Shown here piece after piece: positions 1,747-50,000 of a DNA stretch of 64,000 nucleotides. Source of the stretch: Planctomycetota bacterium (GTDB taxonomy: Bacteria > Planctomycetota > B15-G4 > SIAN01); the NCBI GenBank assembly GCA_031409275.1, contig JANNXA010000022.1:160001-224000 (forward strand), written 5' to 3'. Every line of letters begins with the position of its first letter. Within the stretch, counting starts at the first letter, position 1. The translations under genes were made by a program, and so were the position numbers. The notes beneath the pieces were generated by a model that was not told the origin of the DNA, did no database searches, and was given only the letters and a program-made list of their open reading frames with translations.

Positions 1747-2567
1747 TCAGCGGTCGCGGCGCCGCAGCGCGCCGAGCACGCAGCAGACGACGAACAGGCC
1801 CGCGAGCGCCAGCACCACCGCGCCACCGGTCGGCACGGTGAACCAGGTCGAGAGGAGCAGCCCGAACACGCCGCCGAGCAGAGCGATGGCGATGCTCGCC
1901 GCGACGTGACCGCGCAACGTGGTCGCGATCTGGCGCCCGGCCGCCGCCGGGATCACCACCCACGCCTCGACCAGCAGCGCGCCGACCACTTTGAGGCTCG
2001 CCACGATGGTGGCCGTCAGCAGCAGCACGAAGAGGTAGTCGAGCCGCGTGCGCTGGCTTGCCGTGGTTGGCGCGACCGCAGGCGCGACACTGTCGAGGAG
2101 CAGGGCGTTGTAGTGGCGCGCCAGGAACGCGGCCGCGATGAGGAGCAGCGCGCCCAGCAGCGCGAGGTCGCCGTTCGTCACGGTGAGCAGGCTGCCGAAC
2201 ATCAGCGCTTCGATCTGGTGGACGTTGAAGCGTTGCGTCACCGCGACGAGCAGGCAGATCCCAAGCCCCAGCGTGAACGCGACGAAGACGCCGATCAGCG
2301 TGTCCGCCGGAAGCGCCGCGCGCCGCTTGAGCCACACCATTCCCAGCGCCGCCAGCAGGCAGAAGCCGAACATGCCGCCGTACGGCGCGGCGATCGGTTC
2401 CCCGAGCGCCAGCCCGATGGTGAGTCCGGTGAGCGCCGCCTGGCCGAGCGCGGTCGACAGGAAGGCGAGCCGCCGCGCGACCACGAGGTGCGACAGCGTG
2501 CCGAGCAGCGGCGCCAGCAGCAGCACGGCGGCGAGTCCGCGTTGCAGGAACGGGAAGTCGAGCCAGT

Positions 2568-2571
<4 letters not shown>
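1747..2571 (-). CDS. Metal ABC transporter permease (ZnuB/FpvE-like)
   Basis: Highly hydrophobic; RRLAFLSTALGQAAL, LMFGSLLTV, LKVVGALLVEA..VIPAAAG motifs of the ABC-3 family; 4-bp overlap with the ATPase gene. Confidence 0.9.
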
Positions 2572-3196
<625 letters not shown>

Positions 3197-3200
<4 letters not shown>

Positions 3201-4144
3201 TGTTTCTGCGCCGCGGGCTTCAACGCGCGCACGATCGTCGCGGCGTTCTGAGCCATCTCCTGCTCGAACTTCTCATCGGTGTAGTCGCCCGTCGCGACGT
3301 GCGAGAGGAGGAACACGTCGGCCTGCGCCGACTGCCGCACCACGTCGAGCAACGCCGGCGGAAAGCTCTCCTCGCTGAAGAGGACGCGCAGCTGCCGGTC
3401 GCGCAGCTCGGTGATCGCGTGGCCGAGTTCGAGCGCCGACGGGACCAATCCGTGCGCGGGCTCGATCACGACGGCGACTTCGATCCCGAACTCCTGCAGC
3501 AGGTAGGCGTAGCCATCGTGAACGGTCGCGACGCGCGCCGCTTCGACGTCGGCGAGCTCGAGCGCTGCCGCCGCCTTGATCTTGCGCAGCTTGCGGGCGT
3601 ACTCGCCGGCGTTCTTGCGGAACAGCGGCGCGAGCTCGGGGCGCAGCTCGCTGAGCGCGTGCTCGATCGCGTAGGTCTGCTGGATGGCGTTCGTGAACGA
3701 GAGGAAGGTGTGGCTGTTGATCGCTTCGCCGTGTGCGCCGTGCAGGGTCGGCGTCGCGTCGCTGGGTCGGATGCGCAGCAACCGGCCATTGCCGGAGGCG
3801 ACGATCATCGGTTCGAGGAAGTCGTCATGGCCCAGTCCGTTCACGACCACGGCATCGAGGTCGGCGAGCTTCGCGATGCCGGCGGCGCGCGGCTGGTAGT
3901 TCCCGGCGTCGACGTCGCCTGGCAGCAGCGGGCGCACTTCGACGTCGCTGCCGGCGACCACGGCGCGCGTCCATGAGTAGTAGGGATGGAGCGTGACGCC
4001 GACCTTGAGCGGGGCTGCCGTGCGCGGCATCGGTTGAGCGGGCAGAGCGGACGCCGGAGGAGCCTGCGCTGCCGCCTCGGCGGTTGCCGCGATGAGCCAG
4101 CAGAGGAGGGTGGCGCAGACGTCGCGACGATCGAGGCGAATCAT
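3197..4144 (-). CDS. Metal ABC transporter substrate-binding protein (cluster A-I, FpvC-like)
   Basis: Signal peptide; GVTLHPYYS, NGLGHDDF, NSHTFLS, VHDGYAYLLQEFG, EPAHG, LSH motifs resemble Pseudomonas FpvC as I recall it. Confidence 0.88.
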
Positions 4145-5721: not shown

Positions 5722-6539
5722 GCGAGGCGGCACGCCGAGATGGCTCGCGCTACCACGTCAGCGACGAGGAGAAGGCGCGATTCGCGGCCGACGGCTGGGT
5801 CCATCTGAAAGGGGTCCTGTCGGTCGAGGAGCTGGCGGCAGTCGCCATCGACTACGAGCGCTTCCTGCGTCGCGAGATCGCGGTCGCCGGCAAGGACTTC
5901 TGCGACATGTCCGGCGACTACGACAAGCCGGTCGAGTCGTTTGCGATCGTGAACGTGATGCTGCCACGCCGCTACCACCCCGCCTGGCAGGGCAGCCTGT
6001 ACGAACAGCGCGCCCACTCCATCGCCGAGCAGCTGCAAGGGCCGGGGATGGCGCTCGACTACGACCAACTCCTGGCCAAGCGTCCGCAGCGACCGGACGC
6101 GGTCTTCGCCTGGCATCAAGACCTCGCCTACTGGCCGACCGATACGCCGGATACGCGCACCGCCACCTGCTGGCTCGCGCTCGATGACTCGACGCCCGAG
6201 AACGGCTGCATGCGCTTCGTTTCGGGGACGCAGGCGGCGCCGCTGCGCCCCCACCGGCCGCTGCATGGCGACCGCTCGAAGTCGCACACGCTGGTGACCG
6301 ACCTCGTGAAGGGCGATCGAGTGACGCTGGCCCGCCTCGCGCGCGGTGACATCACCGTTCACGACGAGCGGGTGCTGCACGGGTCGGGCGGCAACGCGAG
6401 CAGCGGATGGCGTCGCGCCTACATCGTCGCCTTTCGCAGCGCCGCCACCGTCGCCGAGGAGCGCCGCCGCGGCTTCACCCACTCGCACAACGACGAGGCC
6501 AACGTGCTCGATCGCGTCGGGTTCGCGCAGGGGCGCTGA
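5718..6539 (+). CDS. Phytanoyl-CoA dioxygenase family (Fe/2OG) protein
   Basis: F..DGW, WHQD (HxD), [15 protein letters not shown], distal HGSGGN...RRA. Confidence 0.9.
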
Positions 6540-6569
6540 GCCAGCGGCGGCAGCGCGCCAGCCGTTGTC

Positions 6570-7325
6570 TCACGCGCGGCTGCGTGCCCCGATGGCGACG
6601 GCGATCGCGACAACGACCAGCACCAGCGCGAAGCTGCGCTGCAACGCCGAGGCGGCCATTCGCGGTGCGACGACCACGCCGAACGCGCTGCCGACGCTCC
6701 CGACCGCTGCGACGAGGCCGACCAGCGCGAGGTCGATCGTGACGCCACCGCGAGCGTGGTGGGCGGCGAAGGCCACGCTCGAGTTGATCGCGATCACCAC
6801 CAGGCTCGTCGCTGCCGCGCGCGCGATCGGAAGGCCGCCGAACAGCAACATCGCCGGCACCAGCAGGAAGCCGCCGCCGACCCCGAGGAACCCGGTCAAC
6901 ACCCCCACTCCAACGGCGGCGCTGACGGCCTTGGCCGGCTGCCAGGCGGTTGGATCGCCCGGGACTTTCGGGGCGACGGCACGACGCCACAGGGCCACCG
7001 CCGCGCTGGCAACCAGCGCCGAGAAGGCGAGTTCCGTCGCGCGCTCCGGCACCGCGGCGTGGAGGCGCGCGCCGATCGGAGCGCCGAGCGCGCCGACTGC
7101 CGCGAAGAGGAACGCGATGCGGAGGTCGACGAGTCTCCGGCGCGCTTGCATCAAGGCGCCGACCGCGCTGATCAGCGCGACGATCACCAGCGATTCGACC
7201 GTTGCCTGATGTGGCGTTCGGTGGAGCAGCAGCGTCAGCAACGGAACCGTGAGGATCGAGCCGCCCGACCCGAACAGGCCGAGGCTGACTCCGACGACGG
7301 CGGCGCCGATCCAGGCGGCGATCAT
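6570..7325 (-). CDS. Sulfite exporter TauE/SafE family
   Basis: Duplicated G-rich motifs [14 protein letters not shown] and [13 protein letters not shown], plus AAATSL; ATGA overlap with the upstream gene stop. Confidence 0.9.
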
Positions 7326-8623
7326 CGCCGCGGAGCCGCGCAGCCTCCGGCCGAGCAGCCCCCACCCTCCGCGGTCGCGGACATCGGCGCGGCGCTCGAG
7401 CGATTCCATGGCATGCGCGCCAACAGCAGCCCCATCCCGCACCAGTCGGTGATTCCGGCGAAGAGGAGGCCACCGCCGACGAACGCGGCGAGACCGACGA
7501 ATGCCGGATGGAGCAGCAGCGCCAACACGGAGGAGAGCAGGACGAGGCTGCCGGCGACGATTCGCACCTGCCGTTCGAGCGAGAGGCGCGCCCGCCCCTT
7601 CACGGTGTCAACGCCCGCGGCGCGCAGCGCTTCGAGCCCTCCTTCGACGACCGTCGTTCCGCCGACGCCGAGCGCCAAGAGCCGCTCCTGCGCCTGCGCT
7701 GCGCGAGCGCCGGTTCGGCAGAGCAGCAGGCGTGGCGCTGCCACTTTGCGGATCTCGTCGATTCGCCCTTCGAGTTGATCGAGCGCTACCAGGCGCGATC
7801 CGTCGACATGCTCCGTCTCGAATTCGGCTCCGCTGCGCACATCGATCACGCTGTGGGCGCTGCCGTTGGCGATGCGTGCCACGAGTTCGGCTGCCGGAAG
7901 CGAGGCGGCGATGGGCGCGCCGTCGCGATTCAGCGCCAGCAGCAGCTCCATGTTCGCGGGACGCGGCGGCCCCGGCCCCGCCAGCGCCTTCGCGAAGGCG
8001 TCGCGGTCGGCGTGGGCCAGCCAAGGATTGTCGCGCCTCTGTCCACCCAGGGTGCTCTCGATCCGGCCGTGGTAGTCGTGGCCGGGAAACAGGCGGGTGG
8101 TGTCGGGCAGTTCGCGCAGCAACCGCTGCAACGTGTCGAACAGGACGCGTGCGTCGCCCCCGAGGAAGTCGGCGCGCGCGATGGTGTCGATCAGCAACGT
8201 GTCGCCGGCGAAGAGCGCGTCGCCAATCACCAGCACGAGATGATCTTGCGTATGACCGGGCGCGTGGAGCACCCGCACGCGCTGCTCACCCAGCGGCAGT
8301 TCCTCACCGTCGGCCGGCATGCGCGTCACTCCGCGATGAGCCGCCAGCGGATGGGCAACGCGGGTCGCTTGCAGTCGGATCGCGAGGGAGGCCGATCCGG
8401 AGGGGTGATCGGCGTGGGTGTGGGTGTCGACGACGAAATCGACCGTGAGCTGGTCGCGGTTCACTCGATCGACGATCGCATCGACGAGATCGAGATGCGG
8501 GTCGACCACGAGCGCGCGTCGGGAAGGCGCGTCCGCGACGAGCCAGCTGCGGCACCCTTGCGGGTGGAGGAACGGGACGACGACGAGGTGGCTCGCGGAA
8601 CGGGTGGGCGCATCGAGTTTCAT
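7322..8623 (-). CDS. Persulfide dioxygenase-like MBL hydrolase + rhodanese + YgaP/DUF2892 membrane domain fusion
   Basis: THTHADH, PGHT, GDTL and PGHDY (ETHE1/MBL); IDVRSGAEF and CRTGAR (rhodanese); LERQVRIVAG...GITDWCGMGLLLARMPWN (YgaP); RBS CAGGAG upstream of ATG 8623. Confidence 0.88.
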   Translation of the reverse strand: MKLDAPTRSASHLVVVPFLHPQGCRSWLVADAPSRRALVVDPHLDLVDAIVDRVNRDQLTVDFVVDTHTHADHPSGSASLAIRLQATRVAHPLAAHRGVTRMPADGEELPLGEQRVRVLHAPGHTQDHLVLVIGDALFAGDTLLIDTIARADFLGGDARVLFDTLQRLLRELPDTTRLFPGHDYHGRIESTLGGQRRDNPWLAHADRDAFAKALAGPGPPRPANMELLLALNRDGAPIAASLPAAELVARIANGSAHSVIDVRSGAEFETEHVDGSRLVALDQLEGRIDEIRKVAAPRLLLCRTGARAAQAQERLLALGVGGTTVVEGGLEALRAAGVDTVKGRARLSLERQVRIVAGSLVLLSSVLALLLHPAFVGLAAFVGGGLLFAGITDWCGMGLLLARMPWNRSSAAPMSATAEGGGCSAGGCAAPRR

Positions 8624-8663
8624 GACGGGCTCCTGCGGGTGGACGAGTCGCTCTTCCGGCAGG

Positions 8664-8691
8664 AGAGAGGCACGTTCCACGCCAGCGTTCC
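8664..8691 (-). promoter_or_regulatory. Candidate ECF-sigma promoter (GGAAC-N16-CCTCT) for the dioxygenase-tauE unit
   Basis: Minus strand reads GGGAAC GCTGGCGTGGAACGTG CCTCTCT within the 112-bp gap between the sigma and MBL genes. Confidence 0.3.
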
Positions 8692-8735
8692 CGCGGAGGA
8701 GCGCGACGCCACCCGCACGCGCGGGCGGCGCGCCG

Positions 8736-9551
8736 CTAGGAGGTGGACGCTCCTTCACGCAGTTCGCGTGCGAGCCAGTCGCGCAGCGGCTGGGGGAGTT
8801 TTCCTTCGCCAAGCTCGCGGCACAGCTCCTGCCCCCAGTCGAGCGAGGCGAAGACCGTCGCGCACCGCTCGCAGACGAGCCCACGCGGGAACTCGAAGGC
8901 GACCCCGCGATCGAGTGCCTCCTGCTTGGCGCGCAGCAAGTCGAGGCAGAGCTGGCGCTCGTATCGCGGCGGTGCCACCGCCTCCCGTGGCAGCACCGCC
9001 TCGAGTGCCGCGCGCAGCCGCAATCGGGCGCGATGGACGCGCGTGCGGACCGTGGCGGGCTCGATCCCGAGCAGCGCCGCCACCTCGCTCACCTCGAGTC
9101 CGACGATCTCGCGCAGCACCAACGGCAGCCGGAAATCGAGCGGCAACTCCGCGATGGCCGCCTCGAGTTGCTGCTTCGCTTCGCGGCGGACGGCCGCGGC
9201 GACCGGAGTCGAGTCGTCGGGAACCGTTCCGAGCAGCGGTGCCGCGAACAGCGCCTCCGGATCGAGCGGCGCGAGTTCCGTCGGAGCCCCGGCGCGCGGG
9301 CGGTGCATGCGCTGGCAGGCGCGAGCGGCGATCGACCAGAGCCACGTCGCCGGCGATGAGCGCCCTTCGAAGCGATCCCACGCGCGCCACGCCTGCAGGA
9401 AGGTCTCCTGCACCAGCTCACGCGCCTGCTCGTCATCGCCGCAGAAGCGCCGACCGAGTGCGTAGAGGCGGCTGCCCTGCTCGTCGACCAGTCGCGGCAG
9501 CGCTTGCGCGCGCGGGTCGCCTGCGCGAACGGGTGGCGACGTCTCGCTCAA
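8736..9551 (-). CDS. ECF RNA polymerase sigma factor with Cys-rich C-terminal extension
   Basis: Region 2 ELVQETFLQAWRAWDRFEGRSSPATWLWSIA; region 4 LREIVGLEVSEVAALLGIEPATVRTRVHRARLRL; tail C...CERC...C; TTG start overlaps the upstream TGA. Confidence 0.9.
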   Translation of the reverse strand: MSETSPPVRAGDPRAQALPRLVDEQGSRLYALGRRFCGDDEQARELVQETFLQAWRAWDRFEGRSSPATWLWSIAARACQRMHRPRAGAPTELAPLDPEALFAAPLLGTVPDDSTPVAAAVRREAKQQLEAAIAELPLDFRLPLVLREIVGLEVSEVAALLGIEPATVRTRVHRARLRLRAALEAVLPREAVAPPRYERQLCLDLLRAKQEALDRGVAFEFPRGLVCERCATVFASLDWGQELCRELGEGKLPQPLRDWLARELREGASTS

Positions 9552-11164
9552 GAGCCGAGGTGATCGATGCGCAGCACGGCGAAGCGCGTCGCGTCGTCCG
9601 CGCTCGCGCCAAGCAGCCCCCACGTGGCGAGCCCATCGTCGGAGCGCGCGTCGAGCAGCAGCAGCGCCAGTCGCGCGAGCCGCTGCTTCGAGGGCACGAA
9701 GAGCGTCCCCGCGGGCAGCTCGCCCTGCCACGCTCCGTCGCTGCCGCCCCACTCGATGAGTCGATGACCCTGGAATGGCCGTTCCGATTCGCGGCGATCC
9801 CGGATCACCATGGCGGTTCCGCGGGCCGGAGCCGCCGCCGCGAAGCGCTCGACCACGAGGCCGTGGCGGCGCAGCAGCTCTTCGAGCTCCGCGCTCGCAC
9901 CCGGAATCGCGAAACCGGCGAGAGGCAGCGCGAGCGGCTCCAACCCCCCGAAGCTCACCTGCGCCGGAAGCACCACTTCACGCACGACACCGGTGTCGAT
10001 GACCCGTTCGAGTCCCGTCACGGCGTCGGGCTCGCTGCGGCACTCACCGACCAGCACGCGGTCGTTCGCGCGCGTCACGGTCAGCTTGCCGCGTCGGGGC
10101 ACGGCCGCGCCGCCCGCCCGCTCGATCCCGTCGGCGTCGGCGTCACGGCGAAGCTGCGCGATGGTGTCGGCACGCGCTGCGGAAAAGCGCAGCGCCGCCC
10201 GCACGAAGGCGCCAGTCACCTGCACGCGCCGCTCGAAGGTCTCGTGGCTGTAGGCCTCCGAAAGGAGCGTGAGGCGGTTGCAGAGGCCGAAGTAGTTGAT
10301 GCCGTAGCGCCCGCGGTGGTCGAAGGTCGCCCAGCCGAGTTCGGGCTGCTTGGAATCGACGAAGTCGCCGTAGTCGTAGGTGGCGAATCCGGCGCCCGCC
10401 ATCGTCGCGCGCAAGGCCGGCAACAGCGTTCCTTGCGCGAACGCCAGCATCTTCGGTTCGGTCGCCGGATGGAGCGGCGGGGCATAGGTGAGGTCGTAGC
10501 CGTGGAAGCTGCCATCGGTCGTGTGCAGATCCATCACCAGCGCGGCGTCGAGCGCGTTCACCGCAGCGATCAGCCCGCGCGTCTCGGGCGCTTCGAGCTT
10601 GATGAAGTCGCGGTTCAGGTCGAGCTGCTGTCCGTTGGCGCGTTGACCGACGCCTTCGACCGGCCCGTTCTGGTCGGGGCGATTCTTGCGATCGATGGCG
10701 TCGTTGCCGTCGGGGTTGTAGTTCGGCACGAACGCGATCACCAGGCGCGTCAGGAGCTCGGTGTGCTGGCCCGCCGCGAACTCGCGCAGGAGCTCCTGCA
10801 CCGCCTCTTTGCCCTCGACCTCGCCCGCGTGGATGTTGGCGCAGACCAGCACGGCGAGCTTGCCGCTCGCGCGCGCGATGGCCAACGTCGGGCAGGGCGG
10901 CTCGGCCACGAGCACCAGCGGCACCGCGCGCCCTTGCGTCGATGTCGCGATCTCGAGGCGCACGAGGCGTGGCGAGGCGGCGACGCAGGTCGCCACGAAC
11001 CGCTCGACCTCCTCGCTCGTCGAGGTGCGCGTGAAGCCGGACGCCTCGGCCACGGTGCGTGGTAGTGCGGGTGGCGGTCCCGGCGACGCGTCCTGCTGCG
11101 ATGCGCGCGCGAGCGACGCGGACAGGAGGAGAGCGAGCGGGGCCAGCAGCCGGCGCGGGCTCAT
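9548..11164 (-). CDS. M14 family zinc carboxypeptidase, secreted
   Basis: Signal peptide; IHAGEVEGKE (HxxE), YNPDG, DLNRD, DLH. Confidence 0.9.
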   Translation of the reverse strand: MSPRRLLAPLALLLSASLARASQQDASPGPPPALPRTVAEASGFTRTSTSEEVERFVATCVAASPRLVRLEIATSTQGRAVPLVLVAEPPCPTLAIARASGKLAVLVCANIHAGEVEGKEAVQELLREFAAGQHTELLTRLVIAFVPNYNPDGNDAIDRKNRPDQNGPVEGVGQRANGQQLDLNRDFIKLEAPETRGLIAAVNALDAALVMDLHTTDGSFHGYDLTYAPPLHPATEPKMLAFAQGTLLPALRATMAGAGFATYDYGDFVDSKQPELGWATFDHRGRYGINYFGLCNRLTLLSEAYSHETFERRVQVTGAFVRAALRFSAARADTIAQLRRDADADGIERAGGAAVPRRGKLTVTRANDRVLVGECRSEPDAVTGLERVIDTGVVREVVLPAQVSFGGLEPLALPLAGFAIPGASAELEELLRRHGLVVERFAAAAPARGTAMVIRDRRESERPFQGHRLIEWGGSDGAWQGELPAGTLFVPSKQRLARLALLLLDARSDDGLATWGLLGASADDATRFAVLRIDHLGS

Positions 11165-12015
11165 GCGCGGCTCGCGAAGAGCAGCGTGCGCAGGCCGTTG
11201 CGTTCCTGGCGGACGTGGTCGATCTCGATGCGGGGGAACCCGGCCAAGGTGAGCGCCTCCTTCAGTCCATCGAGCGGGAGCCAGCGCGCGAAGTCGAGCG
11301 TTCCGGCGAAGGGGTTGTCGGGCTGGTCCTCGCGGAAGCGTCGGAACGCGAAGCGGCGTCCCCCCGCCTCGTAGCTCTCGGTGGCCTGCTCAGGCGCGGC
11401 GATCGAGGTGTCGAGCATCATTCCATCGCGCACCAGCTCACCGAGCGCCAGCAGATGGGCGACCGGATCACGCAGGTGGTAGAGCACTCCGACGTGATGG
11501 GCGACGTCGACCTGCAACTCTGGCGGCGGCGTCGCGCGGCTCTCGACGTCCCATGGGAAGACGGTCGGGTGGACGCCGAAGAAGGCGCAGCGCACGATCG
11601 TCTTCACCACGTTCTCGACGCGCGCATCGATGGCGGTGACGGCTTTCGCGCGCTGGCACAAGGCGATGGTGTGAATCCCCTCGAAGCAACCGATCTCGAG
11701 CACTCGCTTGTCGGCGAGGTGGAAGCGCGCGTCGAACTGCACGATGCGCGGATCGGGAATCGGCTGCGGCGACTCGCGTTTGCCCTCTTTCGCCGGGCAG
11801 CCGAAGCGGCGTCCGTGGCCATCCGCGGTGAAGCAGTTCCAATCGAGCAGCGTGTTCAGCCGGTCGAGTTCGCCGTCGGAGAGGCGATCGACGAGCGGCG
11901 CGGCCACGCGCCCCTCGGTGAAGCCGCTGCGCGGGAAGCTGGCGCGAAACCTCGCCTTGGCGGCCGCGCGCGCGGCGCTGCGGTCGAATCGTTCGAGCAA
12001 CCAGCGGGCAAGCAT
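11161..12015 (-). CDS. Class I SAM-dependent methyltransferase
   Basis: VLEIGCFEG (motif I), AIDAR, GVLYHLRDPV; start ATG 12015. Confidence 0.85.
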   Translation of the reverse strand: MLARWLLERFDRSAARAAAKARFRASFPRSGFTEGRVAAPLVDRLSDGELDRLNTLLDWNCFTADGHGRRFGCPAKEGKRESPQPIPDPRIVQFDARFHLADKRVLEIGCFEGIHTIALCQRAKAVTAIDARVENVVKTIVRCAFFGVHPTVFPWDVESRATPPPELQVDVAHHVGVLYHLRDPVAHLLALGELVRDGMMLDTSIAAPEQATESYEAGGRRFAFRRFREDQPDNPFAGTLDFARWLPLDGLKEALTLAGFPRIEIDHVRQERNGLRTLLFASRA

Positions 12016-12029
12016 CGAGGGCCTCCGGA

Positions 12030-13223
12030 TCAGCGGCGTCGCAGCGCCTCGGTCGGCGCCAGGCGCGCCGCGCGCCAGGCCGGCACGGCGCCGCCGAGCA
12101 GCCCGAGCGCGAGTGCGAAGGTGATGGCACCGCCAAGCACCGGCAGCGTGACGCGGAAGGCAAACGCGACTTCGGTGAAGGTCGCGAAGTTGGTGGTGCC
12201 GGTCTCGATGCCGTTGATCGGAAGCGCCAGCAGGCACCCGACCGCTCCGCCGATCAGGCCGAGCACCAGCGCCTCGAACAGGAAGGAGAGGAAGATCGGG
12301 AAGGGCCGGAAACCCAGCGACAGGAGGATTCCGATCTCGTGCGTTCGGCTGGCCACCGCCGACAGCATGGTGTTGGTGGCGGTGAAGGTGGCGGCGAGCC
12401 CCATGATCACCGACAGCCCGATGCTGAGCGCGAGCAGCGTGGTCGCGAGCGCGCCGGTCATCGACTCGAGGTACGCGCGCTCGGTGAAGACCTTCACCTT
12501 CAGGTCCTGGTAGGTCGACCCGTCGGCGAGCATCGCGGCGAATGCGTCGTATTCGTCGCCGACGATCTCGGGATTGAGCTTCGCCACCACGCGATTGGCC
12601 ACCGGTCGCTGCAGCGCGACGAGCATGCGCTCGAAGTCGCCCCAGATCTCCGACTCGAAGGGGCCGTCGCATTCGAAGATGCCGACCACGCGAAACGGCG
12701 TCGTGTTGAGCTGGACCACGTCGCCGAGCCGGCAGTTCTCGATGCGATCGACGAGCTTGCGCCCCACCACGACCTCGTCGGCGCCGAACTGCAGCGCGCG
12801 CCCCTCGGTGAAACGGAACGAGTCCCCGCGAATCGCGAGGCTCGCCGCCTGCACTCCGCGGATCGGGACGTTGGTCTCGCCGCTGCCGTCCGCCTTGTTG
12901 CGTCGGACGGCGAGGTAGCACTCCATCGCCGCGAGTGGCGCGCCTTCCGGGCCGCCCGACTTCGCGATCTGCGGAAGGGTCTTGATCAGCCGATCACACG
13001 TTTCGCGCGTGATCCCGCTTTCGCCTTCGCTGGTCGCCCCCTGGCGCAGGAAGACGGCGACATCGTCACGGCCGTTCTGGACGAACAGCGAAGTGAAGCC
13101 GGCTCGCAACGCCAGCACTCCGGCCAGCACGGCGACCGTCGCCCCGATGCCAAGCACGGTCAGCAGGGTCGCGCTGCGGCGGACGAAGAGGCTGCGCAGG
13201 GTGTAGGAGAGTGGTACGAGCAT
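12030..13223 (-). CDS. ABC transporter permease (MacB/FtsX family)
   Basis: N-terminal TM, periplasmic domain, NTMLSAVASRTHEIGILLSLGF, C-terminal PAWRAARL. Confidence 0.92.
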   Translation of the reverse strand: MLVPLSYTLRSLFVRRSATLLTVLGIGATVAVLAGVLALRAGFTSLFVQNGRDDVAVFLRQGATSEGESGITRETCDRLIKTLPQIAKSGGPEGAPLAAMECYLAVRRNKADGSGETNVPIRGVQAASLAIRGDSFRFTEGRALQFGADEVVVGRKLVDRIENCRLGDVVQLNTTPFRVVGIFECDGPFESEIWGDFERMLVALQRPVANRVVAKLNPEIVGDEYDAFAAMLADGSTYQDLKVKVFTERAYLESMTGALATTLLALSIGLSVIMGLAATFTATNTMLSAVASRTHEIGILLSLGFRPFPIFLSFLFEALVLGLIGGAVGCLLALPINGIETGTTNFATFTEVAFAFRVTLPVLGGAITFALALGLLGGAVPAWRAARLAPTEALRRR

Positions 13224-13226
13224 CGG

Positions 13227-14393
13227 TCACTCCACCGATCGCAGCGCTTCGACCACGCGAAGCGCGCGTGCGCGAAGCGCCGGCATGACGCCGGCGACGA
13301 GGCCGATGGCGAGCGTGAGCCCGGTGGCCAGCAGCAGCGTCTCCGACGTCACCTCGTAGCCGGGGAACATGCTGCCGAGCGCGGCGCGCAGTCCCGGCTC
13401 GCTCAACTTCGCCAGCGCGATGCCGCCGAAGCCGCCGATCCCGCAGAGCAGCAGCGACTGGGTCAGCATCATCCCGGCGACGCTGCCGTCGGTGAAACCG
13501 ACCGCCTTCAGGATGCCGGCGTCGTGCAACTGTTCGCGGAAGGCCATCAGCATCGTGTTGATGCAGGCGAGCACGATCGCGATCAGGACGCCCCCGCCGA
13601 TCGCCGAGACGAAGAAGGGTACGTTGCCGACCATCGAGACGAACTGCGCCTGGAACTCCGCCTCGGTGCTGCAACTGACGCGCTGCGGCCCGTTCTCGAA
13701 CAGCTGCTCGACCGATGCCGCGATCGCGACCTGGTCGGCATCGGGGGCGGTGCGCAGGAAGTAGGTGCCGGTGCCGGGCGCTTCGCCGAACGACGCCTTC
13801 ACCGTCTCTTCGAAGTAGTTCCAGTGGAAGAACATCGTGTTGCCGTCGACGGCGCTCGAGGTGGGCTCGTAGATCGCCCGGACGGTGAACTCCCACGCGC
13901 CGCCGTCGGGGGCCGGGAAGATCGTCGCCAGCAACGGCACTGTCTGGCCGACCTTCCAGTCGAACTGCTTCGCGAGCGAGCGGCCGACCAGGCAGCCGCG
14001 TCGATCGGCGGCGACGTCGGCCCAACTGCCCTCGACCAGCGACACTTCCGGATACAGGTCGTTGAGCTGGTCCATGTCGACGGCGAACTGCGCGAAGAAG
14101 GCGTCCTCGTCGCCGTAGCGGCCGCCGAACCACTGCCATTTGCAGAGGGTCTGGACCCCTTCGACAGCGGCGATCTTCGCCTGGTAGCTCTGCGGCAGGT
14201 CGACGAAGAGGCTCACGGCGGATTGCACGACGAGGCGATCGCGCTTGGCACCGCGCACGCCGGCGTCGAGCGCGACGACCAGCGAGCGCAGCATGCAGAG
14301 CAGGAACAGCGCCACCACCAGCGAAGCGATGGTGAGACCCGAGCGAACCTTGTGCTTGCCGAGGTAACGGCGAACCAGGCGGAAGGAACTCAT
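13227..14393 (-). CDS. ABC transporter permease (MacB/FtsX family)
   Basis: RSGLTIASL; INTMLMAFREQLHDAGILKAVGF; C-terminal PALRARALRVVEALR. Confidence 0.92.
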   Translation of the reverse strand: MSSFRLVRRYLGKHKVRSGLTIASLVVALFLLCMLRSLVVALDAGVRGAKRDRLVVQSAVSLFVDLPQSYQAKIAAVEGVQTLCKWQWFGGRYGDEDAFFAQFAVDMDQLNDLYPEVSLVEGSWADVAADRRGCLVGRSLAKQFDWKVGQTVPLLATIFPAPDGGAWEFTVRAIYEPTSSAVDGNTMFFHWNYFEETVKASFGEAPGTGTYFLRTAPDADQVAIAASVEQLFENGPQRVSCSTEAEFQAQFVSMVGNVPFFVSAIGGGVLIAIVLACINTMLMAFREQLHDAGILKAVGFTDGSVAGMMLTQSLLLCGIGGFGGIALAKLSEPGLRAALGSMFPGYEVTSETLLLATGLTLAIGLVAGVMPALRARALRVVEALRSVE

Positions 14394-14397
14394 GCGC

Positions 14398-15108
14398 TCA
14401 GGCCCGACCGGCGACGACGGGGTTGGTCTCGATCCGGCCGAGCTGCCCCTTGTCGAGGTGGACGATCATGCTGGCGCGCGCCGCTGCGAACGGGTCGTGC
14501 GTCACCATCAGGATGGTCTTCTTGAACTCCTGGTTCAGGCGCACCAGAAGGTCGAGCACGTCGCCGGCCGACTTGCGGTCGAGATCGCCGGTGGGCTCAT
14601 CGGCGAGGATCACTTTCGGGTCGCTGGCGATCGCGCGCGCGATGGCGACGCGCTGCTCCTGACCACCCGAGAGTTGTTGCGGACGATGCTCTTCGCGGCC
14701 CTCGAGCCCGACCAGTTTCAGCGCGAAGCGCGCGTGGTCGCGCCGCTCCTTCTTGGAGAGGGGCGTCAGCGTGAGCGGCAGTTCGACGTTCTCCTGCGCG
14801 GTCAGCACCGGGATCAGGTTGAAGCCCTGGAAGACGAAGCCGACGTTGGCCGCGCGCCACCGCGCGAGTTCGCCGGAGGAGAGCTCGGAGAGGTTCGAGC
14901 CTGCCACGACGAGCTGTCCGTCGTCGGCCTGGTCGAGCCCGCCAATCAAGTTGAGCAGCGTCGTCTTGCCCGAACCCGACGGCCCCATCAGCGCATAGAA
15001 GCGCCCCTCGTCCATCGTCAGGTCGAGTCCGTCGAGCACGGTCAGCGTCTCGCCGCCGCGCTGGTAGCGCTTGAAGACTCCGCGCGCCGAGATCATCGGA
15101 TTGCTCAT
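14398..15108 (-). CDS. ABC transporter ATP-binding protein (LolD/MacB type)
   Basis: GPSGSGKTT, LSGGQEQRVAIARA, ILADEPTGDLD, VTHD. Confidence 0.95.
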   Translation of the reverse strand: MSNPMISARGVFKRYQRGGETLTVLDGLDLTMDEGRFYALMGPSGSGKTTLLNLIGGLDQADDGQLVVAGSNLSELSSGELARWRAANVGFVFQGFNLIPVLTAQENVELPLTLTPLSKKERRDHARFALKLVGLEGREEHRPQQLSGGQEQRVAIARAIASDPKVILADEPTGDLDRKSAGDVLDLLVRLNQEFKKTILMVTHDPFAAARASMIVHLDKGQLGRIETNPVVAGRA

Positions 15109-16541
15109 GGCTGCTCCTTCGACTTCGCTTGCACCCGATCCCCGTCGGCGAGGTCCGCCGGCGGGTCGACCACCACGCGATCACGCGCGGCAAGTCCCTT
15201 GGTCACCAGTACGCGCCCGCCGCTCGGTTCCCCCGCGGCGACTTCCGTTCGCTGCACTCGATCGCCGCGCACGACCCACACCACGAGCGCCGCGCCGTCG
15301 CGCTGCAGCGCTCGTTCCGGGACCAGCACGCCGACGATCGGTACGGCGCCTCCCGCGGCCGGGGCCGGCGCATCCTTCGTTCGAAACACGACGCGTGCCC
15401 CCATCTCGGGGCGCAGCTTCGCGTCGGGCGCGGCGAATCGCACGCGCACTTCGATCGTCGCCTTGCTTCGACTCGCGGTCGGCCAGATCCGGGTGACCTC
15501 GCCGTCGTATCCCTGCTCCGGCCACGCATCGAGGAAGATGCTGGCTGGCGCGCCGACCGTGACGGCGTTGATGGTCCGCTCCGGCATCTCGACCTGCACT
15601 TCGAGCGACGCGAAGTCGACCATGGTCGCCACCGAGCCGCGGCTGTTGGCTCCCTGCGAGTTGGGTGAGACGACCTCGCCGACTTCGGCGTCCTTCAGCA
15701 CGACCACGCCGTCGAAAGGGGCGCGCACTTCGGTCTTGTCGTAGGTTGCCTGCGCCTGGTCGCGCTGCGCGGAGGCGACCGCCACCCGCGTGAGCACCTC
15801 GGCCGCGAGCGACTCCTGCACGGCGACTTGCCGCTCTCCCTGCACGATCGCCGATTGCGCGGCGGCGAGCTGAGCGACGGCGGCACGCTCCGCGGCGGCG
15901 GCCCGCGCCGCCTCGGCGCGCGCATCATCGAGCCACTGCTGGCTCTCGATGTCGTCGGCCACCATCTTCTCGGCGCGAGCGAGCCGTTGTGCCGCCTGCG
16001 CGCTCGTGGCGCGCGCCTCATCTTGCTGCGCGGCGGTGGCGTCGCGAATGCGCTCGAGGCGCTCGATGTCGCTGCGAGCGGCGGCCAACTCCTGCTCGGC
16101 GCGGGTGACGGACGCCTTCGCGCTCGCAAGCTCGGCGGTGGCATGGGCGAGCGACGCGCGGTACTCGTCCGAGTAGAGACGGGCGACCACGAAGCCCTTC
16201 TTGACGACCATTCCTTCGGTCACGTTCATCTCGACGATGCGGCCCGGCGCATCGGCGGAGAGCGCGGCGCGTTTGCTGGCGACGACGTAGCCGTTGGCCG
16301 AGGTCCCGGCGACGGCGCTCGCGGCGAGCGGCGTCGGGGCGAGGGCCACGGCGATCTCGACTTCCGGCAGGCGCACGCGATCGACCCACTGGCGCAACCG
16401 CGGCCAGAACAACGCGATCCCGCCGACGAGCAGCAGCAGCCCGACGATCCTGGCGCCGGAGCCGCCGCGACGCGGTGGTCGGCCGGTTCCTGCTGCGCCC
16501 GCGTCCTGCTTTCGCTCGATCCGCAACGGACTGAGATCCAC
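15105..16541 (-). CDS. Efflux periplasmic adaptor subunit (HlyD/MacA family)
   Basis: TM anchor, lipoyl half-motifs (GRIVEMNVTEG; VRAPFDGVV..K.AEVGEVV), long coiled coil, LRPEMGARV; RBS GGAGG upstream of GTG 16541. Confidence 0.9.
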   Translation of the reverse strand: MDLSPLRIERKQDAGAAGTGRPPRRGGSGARIVGLLLLVGGIALFWPRLRQWVDRVRLPEVEIAVALAPTPLAASAVAGTSANGYVVASKRAALSADAPGRIVEMNVTEGMVVKKGFVVARLYSDEYRASLAHATAELASAKASVTRAEQELAAARSDIERLERIRDATAAQQDEARATSAQAAQRLARAEKMVADDIESQQWLDDARAEAARAAAAERAAVAQLAAAQSAIVQGERQVAVQESLAAEVLTRVAVASAQRDQAQATYDKTEVRAPFDGVVVLKDAEVGEVVSPNSQGANSRGSVATMVDFASLEVQVEMPERTINAVTVGAPASIFLDAWPEQGYDGEVTRIWPTASRSKATIEVRVRFAAPDAKLRPEMGARVVFRTKDAPAPAAGGAVPIVGVLVPERALQRDGAALVVWVVRGDRVQRTEVAAGEPSGGRVLVTKGLAARDRVVVDPPADLADGDRVQAKSKEQP

Positions 16542-16633
16542 GACGCAAAACCCTCCGCCCAAGACGAGCGGCGCACGTTAGCAGCCGGCTCAAGAAGTCG
16601 ACTCGCGCGGGCCGCGTCGCGAACCGCTGCCGC

Positions 16634-46923: not shown

Positions 46924-47045
46924 GAGTGGACTCCATGGGGAGCAGCGCAACGGCGGCGATGGTAACTCCGCAATGCCGGCGCCTCGACCGGGCCGGCTCG
47001 ACGTACGATCACCGGTCGGTTCTTTCCATGCGAGGCGACCCTGCG

Positions 47046-50000
47046 ATGGCTCGATCCGCGAGACGTTCCCGCGACGAATGGCGCCGCCTCTTCGCGATCG
47101 CAGCCCTTGGCGTCGGCGACCCCGATCGTGGCGCCCTCGCGCCGCCCGACTTCCAGCGCGAAGTGCTGCCGCTCCTCGCCGATCGCTGCTTCCGCTGCCA
47201 TGGACCCGACGAAGGCGCGCGCAAGCGCGGTCTGCGGCTCGACACGGCGGAGGGAGCTCGCGCGTTGCTGAAAAGCGGTCGTCGCGCCATCGTTCCAGGG
47301 GATCTGGCCGCAAGCGAAATGGTCCGCCGCATCACCAGCGAGGACGATCGCCGCGTGATGCCGCCCGCCGACTTCGCGCGACCGCTCGCCGAAGGGGAGC
47401 GCGACCTGTTGCTGCGCTGGATCGAAGGCGGTGCCGACTACGCCACGCACTGGGCCTTCGTGGCGCCGCATCGCGCGCCTCTGCCGGCCGTGCTCGACGC
47501 GGGGTGGTGTCGCGACCCGCTCGATCGATACGTGCTGGCGCGATTAGAAGCTGACGCGCTGGCCCCTGCGCCGGAAGCGGATCGCTCGACGTGGCTGCGC
47601 CGCGCGTCGCTTGCGCTCACCGGCTTGCCCCCCACCCTCGAAGAGCTGGCGGCGTTTCGCGCGTCGACCGCAGCGGATGCCTTCGAGCGCGAAACGGATC
47701 GACTGCTGGCGTCGTCGGCCTACGCCGAGCGGATGGCGGCGGACTGGCTCGATGTGGCCCGCTTCGCCGACACCTTCGGCTACCAGAGCGATTGGGACTG
47801 CAACACCTGGCCGTGGCGCGATTGGCTGATCGGCGCGTTCCAGCGCGACCTGCCCTTCGACGAGTTCATCGTCGAGCAGATCGCCGGGGATCTCCTCCCC
47901 GGCGCAACGCGCGACCAACGCCTCGCCACCGCGTTCAACCGTCTGCACCGTCAAACCAACGAAGGCGGTTCGATCGACGAGGAGTTCCGTCAGGAGCATC
48001 TGGCCGATCGCGTGTCGACCTATGCCACCGCCTTCCTCGGCCTGACGGTCGAGTGCGCTCGCTGCCACGACCACAAGTACGACCCGATCGGGCAGGCCGA
48101 CTTCTATCGGCTCGGCGCCTTCTTCGGCGCGATCGATGAAGCGGGTACCTATGCCTATTCGACCGGCGCGATCCCGCGGCCGGTGCTGCGCCTGCCGAAC
48201 GTCGAGCAGGAGGCGGAGCTCGCGCGGCGCGACGCGGTGGTCGCCGAAGCGACGGCGCTCTACGAGCAGGCGGTGGTCGCCGCGCGGAGCTCGAGTCGCG
48301 AGCGGATCGCGGCGCTGCCCGCGCTGCTGGTCGCACCGCCGGTGCGCCACGAGCCGCTCGATGGCGGCGCGCCCGGTCCGAGCGGCTCGGCGACGGCGCT
48401 GGCCGGCGACGACGGGCCGACCTTCGGCGACCTGCCGCCGTTTCGGCGCTGCGACCCGCTGAGCGTGCGACTCGCCGTCCTGTGCCCCGACGTGAAGGCG
48501 CGCGCGACGATCCTGCACACCAGTAGCTTCACGATCGAGAGCGATCAGCAGGGGTATCAGCTGCTGCTGGAAGAGGGGCACCTCGCCTGGCAGGTGCTCC
48601 ACCTGTGGCCCGGCTCCGCGGCGGCGATTCGCACGCTCGAACCCTTCCCGCTCGCCCGATTCGTCGACGTCGTCGCCACCTACGACGGCTCGTCGCGCGG
48701 CGGCGGTCTGCGCCTCTACTTCGACGGCGAGCCGGTCGCGACCGAGATCGTGCGCGACCATCTCGACGGCGCAGCGACCGTTCGCACGCTTCAGATCGGC
48801 CACCGCGATCGCGACGTCGGACTTGCGGGAGGCGTGGTCGACGAGTGGATGCTCTTCGATCGCGCGCTGACCGAGATCGAGGTCGCCGAGCTGCACGCGC
48901 CGGGCGCCTTCGCGGCGAGTCGGGAGGCGCTGCAGGCTGCCGAGATCTCGCCCGCGCGAGACGAACTTGCGGTCGCGCTCGACGCCAACGTCGCGAGTGC
49001 GTTCGCCTTGCTGCGGGCCGCGCGCGCGGCGCAGCAGGAGCTGCTCGAGTCGCTCCGCGAAGTGATGGTGATGGAGGCGAGCGACCATCCGCGACCGACC
49101 TTCGTCCTGACGCGTGGCGCGTACGACCAACCCGATCGCTCGCGGCCGCTGGCGCCCGATGCGGCGATTCCGGCGTTGCTCGCCTTCGATCCGACCTGGA
49201 CGCACGATCGGCTCGGCCTGGCGCGCTGGACGATCTCGCCGCAGAACCCGTTGCCGGCGCGGGTCGCCGTGAACCGCCTGTTCGCGCTCTGCTTCGGGCG
49301 CGGCCTCGTGGACACGCAGGAGAACTTCGGGACGCAGGGCGCGCGGCCAAGCCATCCCGAGCTGCTCGACACGTTGGCGGTCGACTTCGTCGAATCGGGT
49401 TGGCGGGTGAAGGCGATGCTCAAGCGCCTGGTGCTGTCGGCCACGTTTCGGCAATCGTCGGTGGCGACGGCGACGCAGCTCGACCGCGATCCGCTCAACC
49501 GGCAGCTCGGGCGCGGGCCCTCGATTCGCCTTTCCGCCGAGATGATGCGGGATCAGGCCCTGCTCGCCGCGGGGCTGCTCGTCGAGCGCCTCGGCGGTCC
49601 GAGCGTGAAGCCCTGGCAGCCGCCCGGTCTGTGGGAGGAGGCGGGCGCGACGGGCGCCTACCAGCCCGACGTCGGCGCGGACGCCCATCGCCGCGGCCTC
49701 TACACCTTCCGCAAGCGAACGGCTCCCCCGCCGAATCTGGTGCTGTTCGACGCGGGCAGCCGCGAGCAGTGCCTCGCTCGCCGCCAGCCAACGCAGACGC
49801 CGTTGCAGCAGCTGGTGGTGTGGAACGATCCGGTCTACTTCGAAGCGGCGCGCGCGTTGGCGCAGCGCGTCGCAAGCGAGGGCGTCGAGCTCGACGGCCA
49901 GCTCGTGCGAGCGTTCGAGCGACTCGCGTCGCGCGCGCCGACGGTGGCGGAGCTCGAGTCGCTGCGATCGCTCCATGAAAGTCAGCGGCGGGCGCTGCTG

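Follow-up and report, generated by a model that had tools for sequence, protein, structure and literature searches.

We analysed a 64,000-nucleotide stretch of a Planctomycetota bacterium genome (assembly GCA_031409275.1, contig JANNXA010000022.1, positions 160,001 to 224,000; hereafter the window), focusing on a gene for an extracytoplasmic function (ECF) sigma factor that carries a long, cysteine-containing C-terminal tail and lies directly upstream of genes for a persulfide dioxygenase (PDO)-type fusion protein and a sulfite exporter. The features of the locus, in window coordinates, are as follows.

8736..9551, minus strand: ECF sigma factor with a fused tail that aligns as a derivative of a zinc-binding anti-sigma (ZAS) domain, 271 aa, TTG start (open reading frame (ORF) call, Pfam, NCBIfam)
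9300..9488, minus strand: sigma2 domain, residues 22-84, with conserved C37 and C79 (Pfam)
9015..9173, minus strand: sigma4 domain, residues 127-179 (Pfam)
8739..8999, minus strand: putative ZAS-derived tail lacking the His, residues 185-271, three predicted helices (alignments, hhalign, model)
8946-8948, 8871-8873, 8862-8864 and 8820-8822, minus strand: codons of the tail cysteines C202, C227, C230 and C244, respectively
8664..8692, minus strand: predicted cognate ECF promoter, -35 GGGAAC, -10 block CGTGCCTCTC, its end lying 40 bases upstream of the PDO start (family motif)
7322..8623, minus strand: metallo-beta-lactamase (MBL) domain of the persulfide dioxygenase type, rhodanese domain with CRTGAR loop and YgaP/DUF2892 membrane domain, 433 aa (Pfam Lactamase_B, Rhodanese, YgaP-like_TM)
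6570..7325, minus strand: TauE/SafE sulfite exporter, 251 aa (Pfam TauE, E 6e-43)
9548..11164, minus strand: upstream M14 peptidase (Pfam), last gene of an ABC-exporter run

The protein has sigma regions r2 and r4_2 above the Pfam cut-off and no sigma3 domain, and it matches TIGR02937 at 80 bits vs 42.9, as expected of an ECF sigma factor. Its 87-aa tail has no Pfam match, and the sigma contains no cysteine between residues 80 and 201. An earlier note, made from the letters of this DNA, had pointed to an extra C-terminus reading LCLDLLRAKQEALDRG...VCERC...ELC, to a same-strand PDO/rhodanese fusion and sulfite exporter downstream, and to the lack of a separate anti-sigma gene nearby. All three observations hold: the quoted cysteines are C202, C227, C230 and C244, the two downstream genes (7322-8623 and 6570-7325) are supported by Pfam, and, since the sigma gene is flanked by the M14 peptidase and PDO-fusion genes, a separate anti-sigma gene is not adjacent (the rest of the genome was not searched). 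We consider it fairly probable that this is a self-inhibited ECF sigma factor whose His-less, ZAS-derived tail is released by sulfane sulfur, allowing transcription of the PDO-rhodanese-YgaP and TauE genes.

The PDO-fusion gene begins 112 bases after the sigma gene, and the TauE gene overlaps it by ATGA. Its product contains the metal-ligand motifs HTHADH, PGHT, GDT and GHDY together with the rhodanese Cys in the CRTGAR loop, and the closest solved chains to the MBL protein are 4ysb, which we take to be a persulfide dioxygenase, 9rhq, BpPRF (5ve3), presumably a PDO-rhodanese fusion, and human ETHE1 (4chl). Judged by these motifs and matches, it is a PDO-type fusion with a putative role in oxidizing persulfide to sulfite. 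The C-terminus of the fusion (7322-7360, minus strand) is a flexible tail that carries a pair of cysteines at a spacing of five residues, as in an orthologue from another genome (G083, L236:1438-2865), and this arm possibly carries sulfur. Elsewhere, the host genome encodes a DUF442-like gene (G000:C24, ~46931-47503) and a second MBL-rhodanese gene (C7, ~66232-67257).

To describe the tail, we compared it with ZAS profiles. Against the ZAS proteins of Nitrospira it aligned over 77 columns (hhalign 89.5%, E 2e-6) with the four cysteines in register, and a five-residue gap falls where the His helix lies; against a mixed ZAS set the alignment covered the second half only (88.3%), with Cys-x10-LD in register. 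The N-terminal cysteine and the helical pattern of the anti-sigma domain are thereby recovered. The HxxxCxxC motif is not: residue 223 is Arg, and a His four residues before the CxxC occurs in 4/113 relatives. From these alignments the tail is a ZAS derivative that lacks HxxxCxxC, which bears out the suggestion that it is a ZAS domain without the His.

The relatives of the sigma factor place this derivative in context. In the tail-less sister sigmas of Nitrospira, a separate small ZAS gene comes next in 12 of the 13 loci, with zf-HC2 in 12/12, and all ten Myxococcota loci picked with the Nitrospira ZAS profile encode sigma-ZAS fusions with the His intact. In a sigma-core tree the tail family occupies one side of a branch (100/99). 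It is joined with the Nitrospira sigmas at 96/92 in a 45-row tree and at 99/94 in another core tree, and the tail family, Nitrospira sigmas and Myxococcota fusions are together separated, at 98/93, from the ECF29-like and other sigmas, the core tree with Myxococcota being an unrooted one built from the sigma core alone with 45 chosen rows. A search with the Nitrospira ZAS for longer proteins found none, and fused zf-HC2 was not seen in any of the top 120 relatives found for a Nitrospira sigma. C244 was considered as a replacement for the His and rejected, because it is invariant in the His-bearing ZAS domains of Nitrospira and Myxococcota too and thus coexists with the His; it also sits 14 residues beyond C230 on one predicted helix.

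In a predicted full-length model (pLDDT 92, pTM 0.85), the sigma core fits sigmas in anti-sigma complexes (4cxf, target TM-score 0.76, root mean square deviation (rmsd) 4.1; 5wuq, 0.75), with a far poorer fit to sigmas bound to RNA polymerase (rmsd 24-28), so that in the model the sigma adopts a closed form like that of anti-sigma-bound sigmas. A fold search with a tail-only model, a query of three short helices, returned generic helical chains, none of them a clear match and without a ZAS chain (best Z 5.6), and an ESM Atlas match to a zf-HC2 cluster (0.81) is a lead only. CorE proteins need their tails for activity, as ECF41 sigmas need part of their extension, and by analogy the tail described here could be activating, or non-regulatory with control exerted from elsewhere. 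We give this alternative very little credence, as the tail descends from an anti-sigma domain, the model is closed, and an autoregulatory site was not found upstream of the sigma gene.

The tail cysteines are conserved beyond chance, as the earlier note would lead one to expect. A tail search recovered 96 proteins among 502 candidates, and in the tail-driven alignment of 72 rows (the query and 71 matches, fragments and near-copies omitted) C202, C227, C230 and C244 are invariant (72/72). Of 116 loci, 113 show this four-cysteine pattern. When 1.8 billion representatives were searched with a profile, at the distant 50%-cluster level, 143 matched, with C202 retained in 109/113, C227 in 124/138, C230 in 137/139 and C244 in 126/134. 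The best conserved of these, C230 and C202, match the main trigger pair of RsrA, C11-C44. In the sigma2 domain, C37 and C79 are each present in 66 of 77 dereplicated relatives, nine relatives having lost both and four only one of them. The tailed-sigma family is mostly from Planctomycetota: the tail is present in 25/401 genomes of the phylum, and among the 80 matches listed from all genomes at least 10 are full-length loci, eight from Planctomycetota and one each from Acidobacteriota and Gemmatimonadota. One genome carries a second, apparently frameshifted copy of a tailed sigma beside a broken DUF442-like gene (L208/L232, G284:C11), and a 745-aa protein (P0122) reads as a tailed sigma followed by an outer-membrane-efflux-like protein, which may be a read-through or an assembly error.

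We next assembled 116 tail-bearing loci (the window, 10, 2, 80 of 166 metagenome matches and 23), which fall into 77 lineages at 80% identity. For the 37 lineages flanked on each side by 3 kb or more, we counted genes for PDO-type MBL, rhodanese, TauE, YeeE/YedE, YgaP and SQR-like proteins. A sulfur gene lay within 3 kb in 23/37 lineages (22/34 at 70% and 20/29 at 65% clustering), vs 1/49 among tail-less ECF loci with such flanks (of 70), a contrast that is somewhat inflated because the neighbour profiles were built from the same loci and the control loci come from other phyla. With DUF442-like genes, a class that joined the census post hoc, the count rises to 27/37. The linkage seen in the window extends across lineages; these are not independent of one another, though the cassettes beside the sigma vary in content, order and orientation. 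In the host genome none of 45 other ECF-like genes has a sulfur gene within 5 kb. DUF442 is described as a sulfur transferase domain in the sections consulted of two papers (PMC9163753, PMC5823870). A Tll0287 identity for six adjacent genes proved to be a clustering artefact, the five that were scanned being DUF442/TIGR01244-like, below the curated cut-off.

The same census bears on a metal-sensing role, in which binding or loss of a metal at the tail would switch the sigma as in CorE/ECF238. The tail is Cys-rich, RND efflux genes are targets in several lineages, and the SigR regulon can be activated by zinc limitation. Yet the tail is 87 aa long and ZAS-derived vs ~20 aa in ECF238, and no recurrent metal-resistance family was found among the neighbour clusters (81 of the 96 recurring clusters scanned, singletons mostly unscanned), and we consider a metal sensor very improbable.

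The predicted promoter links the sigma to its neighbours. A family motif, GGGAAC(C/G)-N11/12-CGTGTCTC(T/C)(A/C)A, lies upstream of the sigma-adjacent cassette whatever the content or orientation of that cassette. In leave-one-out scoring it reaches at least 12 bits in 35 of the 40 lineages that were selected because they have such a neighbour and, without selection, stands directly after the sigma in 35/73 lineages; upstream of the sigma gene itself it was found in 0/67. Cassettes outside the training set that are convergent or lie farther away (L027, L142, L159, L161 and L210) are likewise preceded by it, and weaker matches occur at 6/13 Nitrospira loci. Within the window, the site at 8664-8692 is the best in the whole genome at 24.5 bits (23.9 when left out, a close relative being in the motif training), ahead of a next best of 19.9; in all, 38 sites exceed 14 bits. 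The motif also occurs elsewhere, reaching at least 12 bits in 26/207 control regions, of which the top ones are ECF29-type GGGAAC/GCATCCAA sites. No sigma-70 promoter or terminator pattern was found in region 6300-9800. Because a sigma-type motif tracks the tailed-sigma family, direct control from this predicted promoter is supported.

A genome-wide motif scan found no regulon in the host genome beyond the local cassette, and neither the DUF442-like gene nor the second MBL-rhodanese gene mentioned above has a site among the 38, so that the host-genome regulon looks like one operon. The exact pattern was matched in one of ten other genomes (72-98% complete). In G083, a gene encoding a 59%-identical PDO-rhodanese-YgaP protein and a TauE gene are accompanied by a divergent ArsR-family gene whose product has C-terminal cysteines, and the motif is absent; this exchange of a sigma for an ArsR-type protein, a putative sensor, fits equivalent roles for the two.

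On these grounds, the self-inhibited sigma would work as follows. In the closed form, the tail would clamp sigma2 and sigma4, with C202, C227 and C230, at the positions of RsrA C11, C41 and C44, forming a three-thiol site that may hold zinc, its fourth position open, or be free of metal. Sulfane sulfur, as persulfide or polysulfide, would sulfurate the tail thiols, leading to a C202-C230 or C202-C227 bridge and release of the clamp; C244 together with sigma2 C37/C79 may make a second site. Once freed, the sigma would use the predicted GGGAAC/CGTGCCTC promoter to express the PDO-rhodanese-YgaP and TauE genes, PDO and rhodanese would turn persulfide into sulfite for export by TauE, and the sigma would reset on reduction because its inhibitor is tethered. 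As the sigma does not appear to be autoregulated, control would be post-translational. The precedent is RsrA, for which the part of the report consulted describes zinc binding by C11, H37, C41 and C44, and oxidation to C11-C44, the main trigger disulfide, or C11-C41, with release of the sigma (PMC4960319). What the analysis itself shows is the domain architecture, the conserved cysteines, the ZAS homology, the linkage to sulfur genes and the motif; persulfide sensing by the tail cysteines is our inference.

Several observations weigh against this scheme. The alignment of the tail with the Myxococcota ZAS (hhalign 74.8%) covers its second half only, Pfam zf-HC2 was found in 0/13 tails, and the compact model may reflect a habit of AlphaFold with free ECF sigmas. 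Among distant 50%-cluster representatives covering the four cysteines, just 92/106 retain all of them, and C227 is substituted in 14/138. In ten of the 37 lineages no sulfur gene lies within 3 kb even with DUF442-like genes counted, three having RND efflux operons and one thioredoxin instead. Where the sigma has no PDO gene beside it (four genomes), the distant PDO clusters have a sense-strand site in none of four cases, and in G415 it is an RND operon that follows the strongest distant site; the claim is therefore limited to the local regulon, other targets being possible. In that same genome, a full Prx-PDO-rhodanese-SQR-TauE-rhodanese/YgaP cluster (L256, G415:C1) stands without the motif.

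Some of this suits a tethered switch of the same design that responds, like RsrA, to disulfide, oxidant or electrophile stress in general, with sulfur genes merely frequent targets. The RsrA-type trigger cysteines are retained, among the targets are peroxiredoxin, AhpD-like, thioredoxin and RND efflux genes, and the part of one report consulted describes disulfide stress caused by sulfane sulfur itself (PMC9163753). Set against this, of the 37 adjacent cassettes that carry the motif, 27 open with PDO, rhodanese, YeeE/YedE, YgaP or Prx-TauE and six with DUF442-like genes, in a set chosen for such neighbours, and the host-genome regulon looks like one operon. We regard general thiol stress as unlikely, though the likeliest of the alternatives. 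Beyond the window, the stronger claim that the family senses sulfane sulfur directly, the tethered anti-sigma having turned, on losing its zinc-binding His, into a persulfide-selective cysteine switch that replaces ArsR-type repressors at operons for sulfide detoxification across Planctomycetota, possibly with a second site of C244 and C37/C79 that locks the tail onto the sigma, has in our estimate slightly less than an even chance of being right.

The gene order upstream bears on one further possibility. The TTG start of the sigma ORF overlaps the stop of the M14 peptidase ORF by 4 bases, and the sigma comes last in a minus-strand run (9548-16562) of genes that encode an adaptor, an ABC ATPase, two FtsX/MacB permeases, a methyltransferase and the M14 peptidase. 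This linkage is confined to the lineage of the window, and the ABC-exporter run in which the sigma gene is inserted probably supplies its transcription. The tail cysteines could be structural and the sigma freed by regulated proteolysis of the tail, as reviewed for fused ECF270 sigmas: ECF270* is tabulated under proteolysis, without experiment (PMC8999054), and a peptidase gene precedes the sigma here. A peptidase neighbour, though, occurs in 3/116 loci only, all in one lineage, a membrane segment is absent, so that intramembrane proteolysis receives no support, and loss of the His speaks against a purely structural zinc site; we judge this explanation very unlikely. Elsewhere in the window, minus-strand ORFs at 1747-4144 for a permease, an ATPase and a binding protein resemble, by eye, a Zn/Mn uptake system, which is also present at L101.

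A literature search on ECF sigmas or anti-sigmas with sulfane sulfur, persulfide dioxygenase or rhodanese found no such system among the papers listed, and a 2020 classification of planctomycete ECFs may already define the group. The present analysis adds the sister-group evidence, the link to ECF270 and the regulator swap. If the proposal is right, it would give a first function to the neighbourhood of ECF270, and the natural series of separate ZAS, fused ZAS and fused His-less ZAS lets one ask what sets the stimulus selectivity of a ZAS domain. With promoter, targets and named cysteines predicted, one gene and one reporter suffice as a test, and an activating, non-autoregulated single-gene switch could become a biosensor for reactive sulfur.

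Comparison with described groups places the tailed sigma nearest to ECF270, a group named in the main text of one review. In the group description consulted (Casas-Pastor et al. 2021, PMC7826278), ECF270 has a soluble ZAS at +1, which in subgroup s2 is fused in 60% of cases; neither a conserved context nor a conserved promoter is given, and the taxa include Nitrospirae, Deltaproteobacteria and one planctomycete genus. The tailed-sigma core groups with the Nitrospira sigma and ZAS pairs and the Myxococcota fusions, with which it shares C37, C79 and the fourth tail Cys; these comparison sequences were assigned to ECF270 by description rather than by group hidden Markov models, and named ECF270 members lie outside the tree. 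The tailed family differs in lacking the ZAS His and its helix and in forming its own clade (100/99) with conserved gene context and promoter. Since ECF270s2 fusions are on record and the Myxococcota fusions are of this kind, the suggestion that a sigma/anti-sigma fusion is undescribed does not stand; sigma-ZAS fusions have also been noted in ECF48/52/53. The His-bearing Myxococcota fusions have DUF302, rhodanese, YgaP or thioredoxin neighbours in 4/10 loci (L272, L273, L280 and L281; G419, G487, G556 and G520), two of which carry a related promoter-like site of 14-15 bits; a thiol or sulfur role may be common to the wider ECF270-like group.

SigR-RsrA offers the closest mechanistic parallel. 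In the sections consulted (PMC4960319), RsrA is a CHCC-type ZAS that shares with the tail an N-terminal Cys and a CxxC, solubility and, for the tail, a likely thiol-triggered release; it differs in that it is not joined to its sigma, uses His37 to bind zinc and controls a thiol-reduction response, whereas the tail is tethered, His-less and encoded beside sulfur-oxidation genes. ECF29 was suggested by the best NCBIfam match, PRK11922 (123.7 bits, below the cut-off of 204), by the common -35 GGGAAC and by the absence of a separate anti-sigma, and its single tail Cys lies at the same distance from the sigma4 end as C202 (L043-L100). Membership was rejected, since two trees and the lack of a significant tail alignment (1.5%) speak against it: the tailed sigmas form a separate clade, and the short ~30-aa, one-Cys tail with its RCE/D motif and the CATCCAA -10 are missing, the -10 being GCATCCAA in ECF29, where autoregulation is predicted, vs GTCTC(T/C)A here (ECF29 motif of S. 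meliloti RpoE8 from the part of PMC6180224 consulted). CorE and CorE2 (ECF238), ECF287 and ECF288 are likewise one-component ECFs with Cys-rich C-terminal extensions, but the comparison with CorE drawn in the earlier note is weak, as the ECF238 tail is ~20 aa vs 87 aa here and activates with metal, and the CxC of its sigma2-sigma4 linker is not found in the tailed sigma. ECF287 is actinobacterial, and ECF288 is a firmicute group with a CGxxGxGxCxC motif that is absent here. The tailed sigma thus falls in no characterised ECF group with an unrelated stimulus.

An ECF26 sigma controls a sulfite oxidoreductase. SqrR, CstR and FisR are persulfide-sensing regulators that act as repressors or, in one case, as an activator, and to our knowledge the sulfane-sulfur sensors familiar so far in bacteria are mainly of these kinds. 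In the sections consulted, BigR/Blh likewise controls genes of the kinds found beside the tailed sigma, for a sulfur dioxygenase, a DUF442/rhodanese sulfur transferase and membrane exporters (PMC5823870). BigR, SqrR, CstR and FisR are DNA-binding repressors or an activator, whereas the protein described here is itself a sigma factor.

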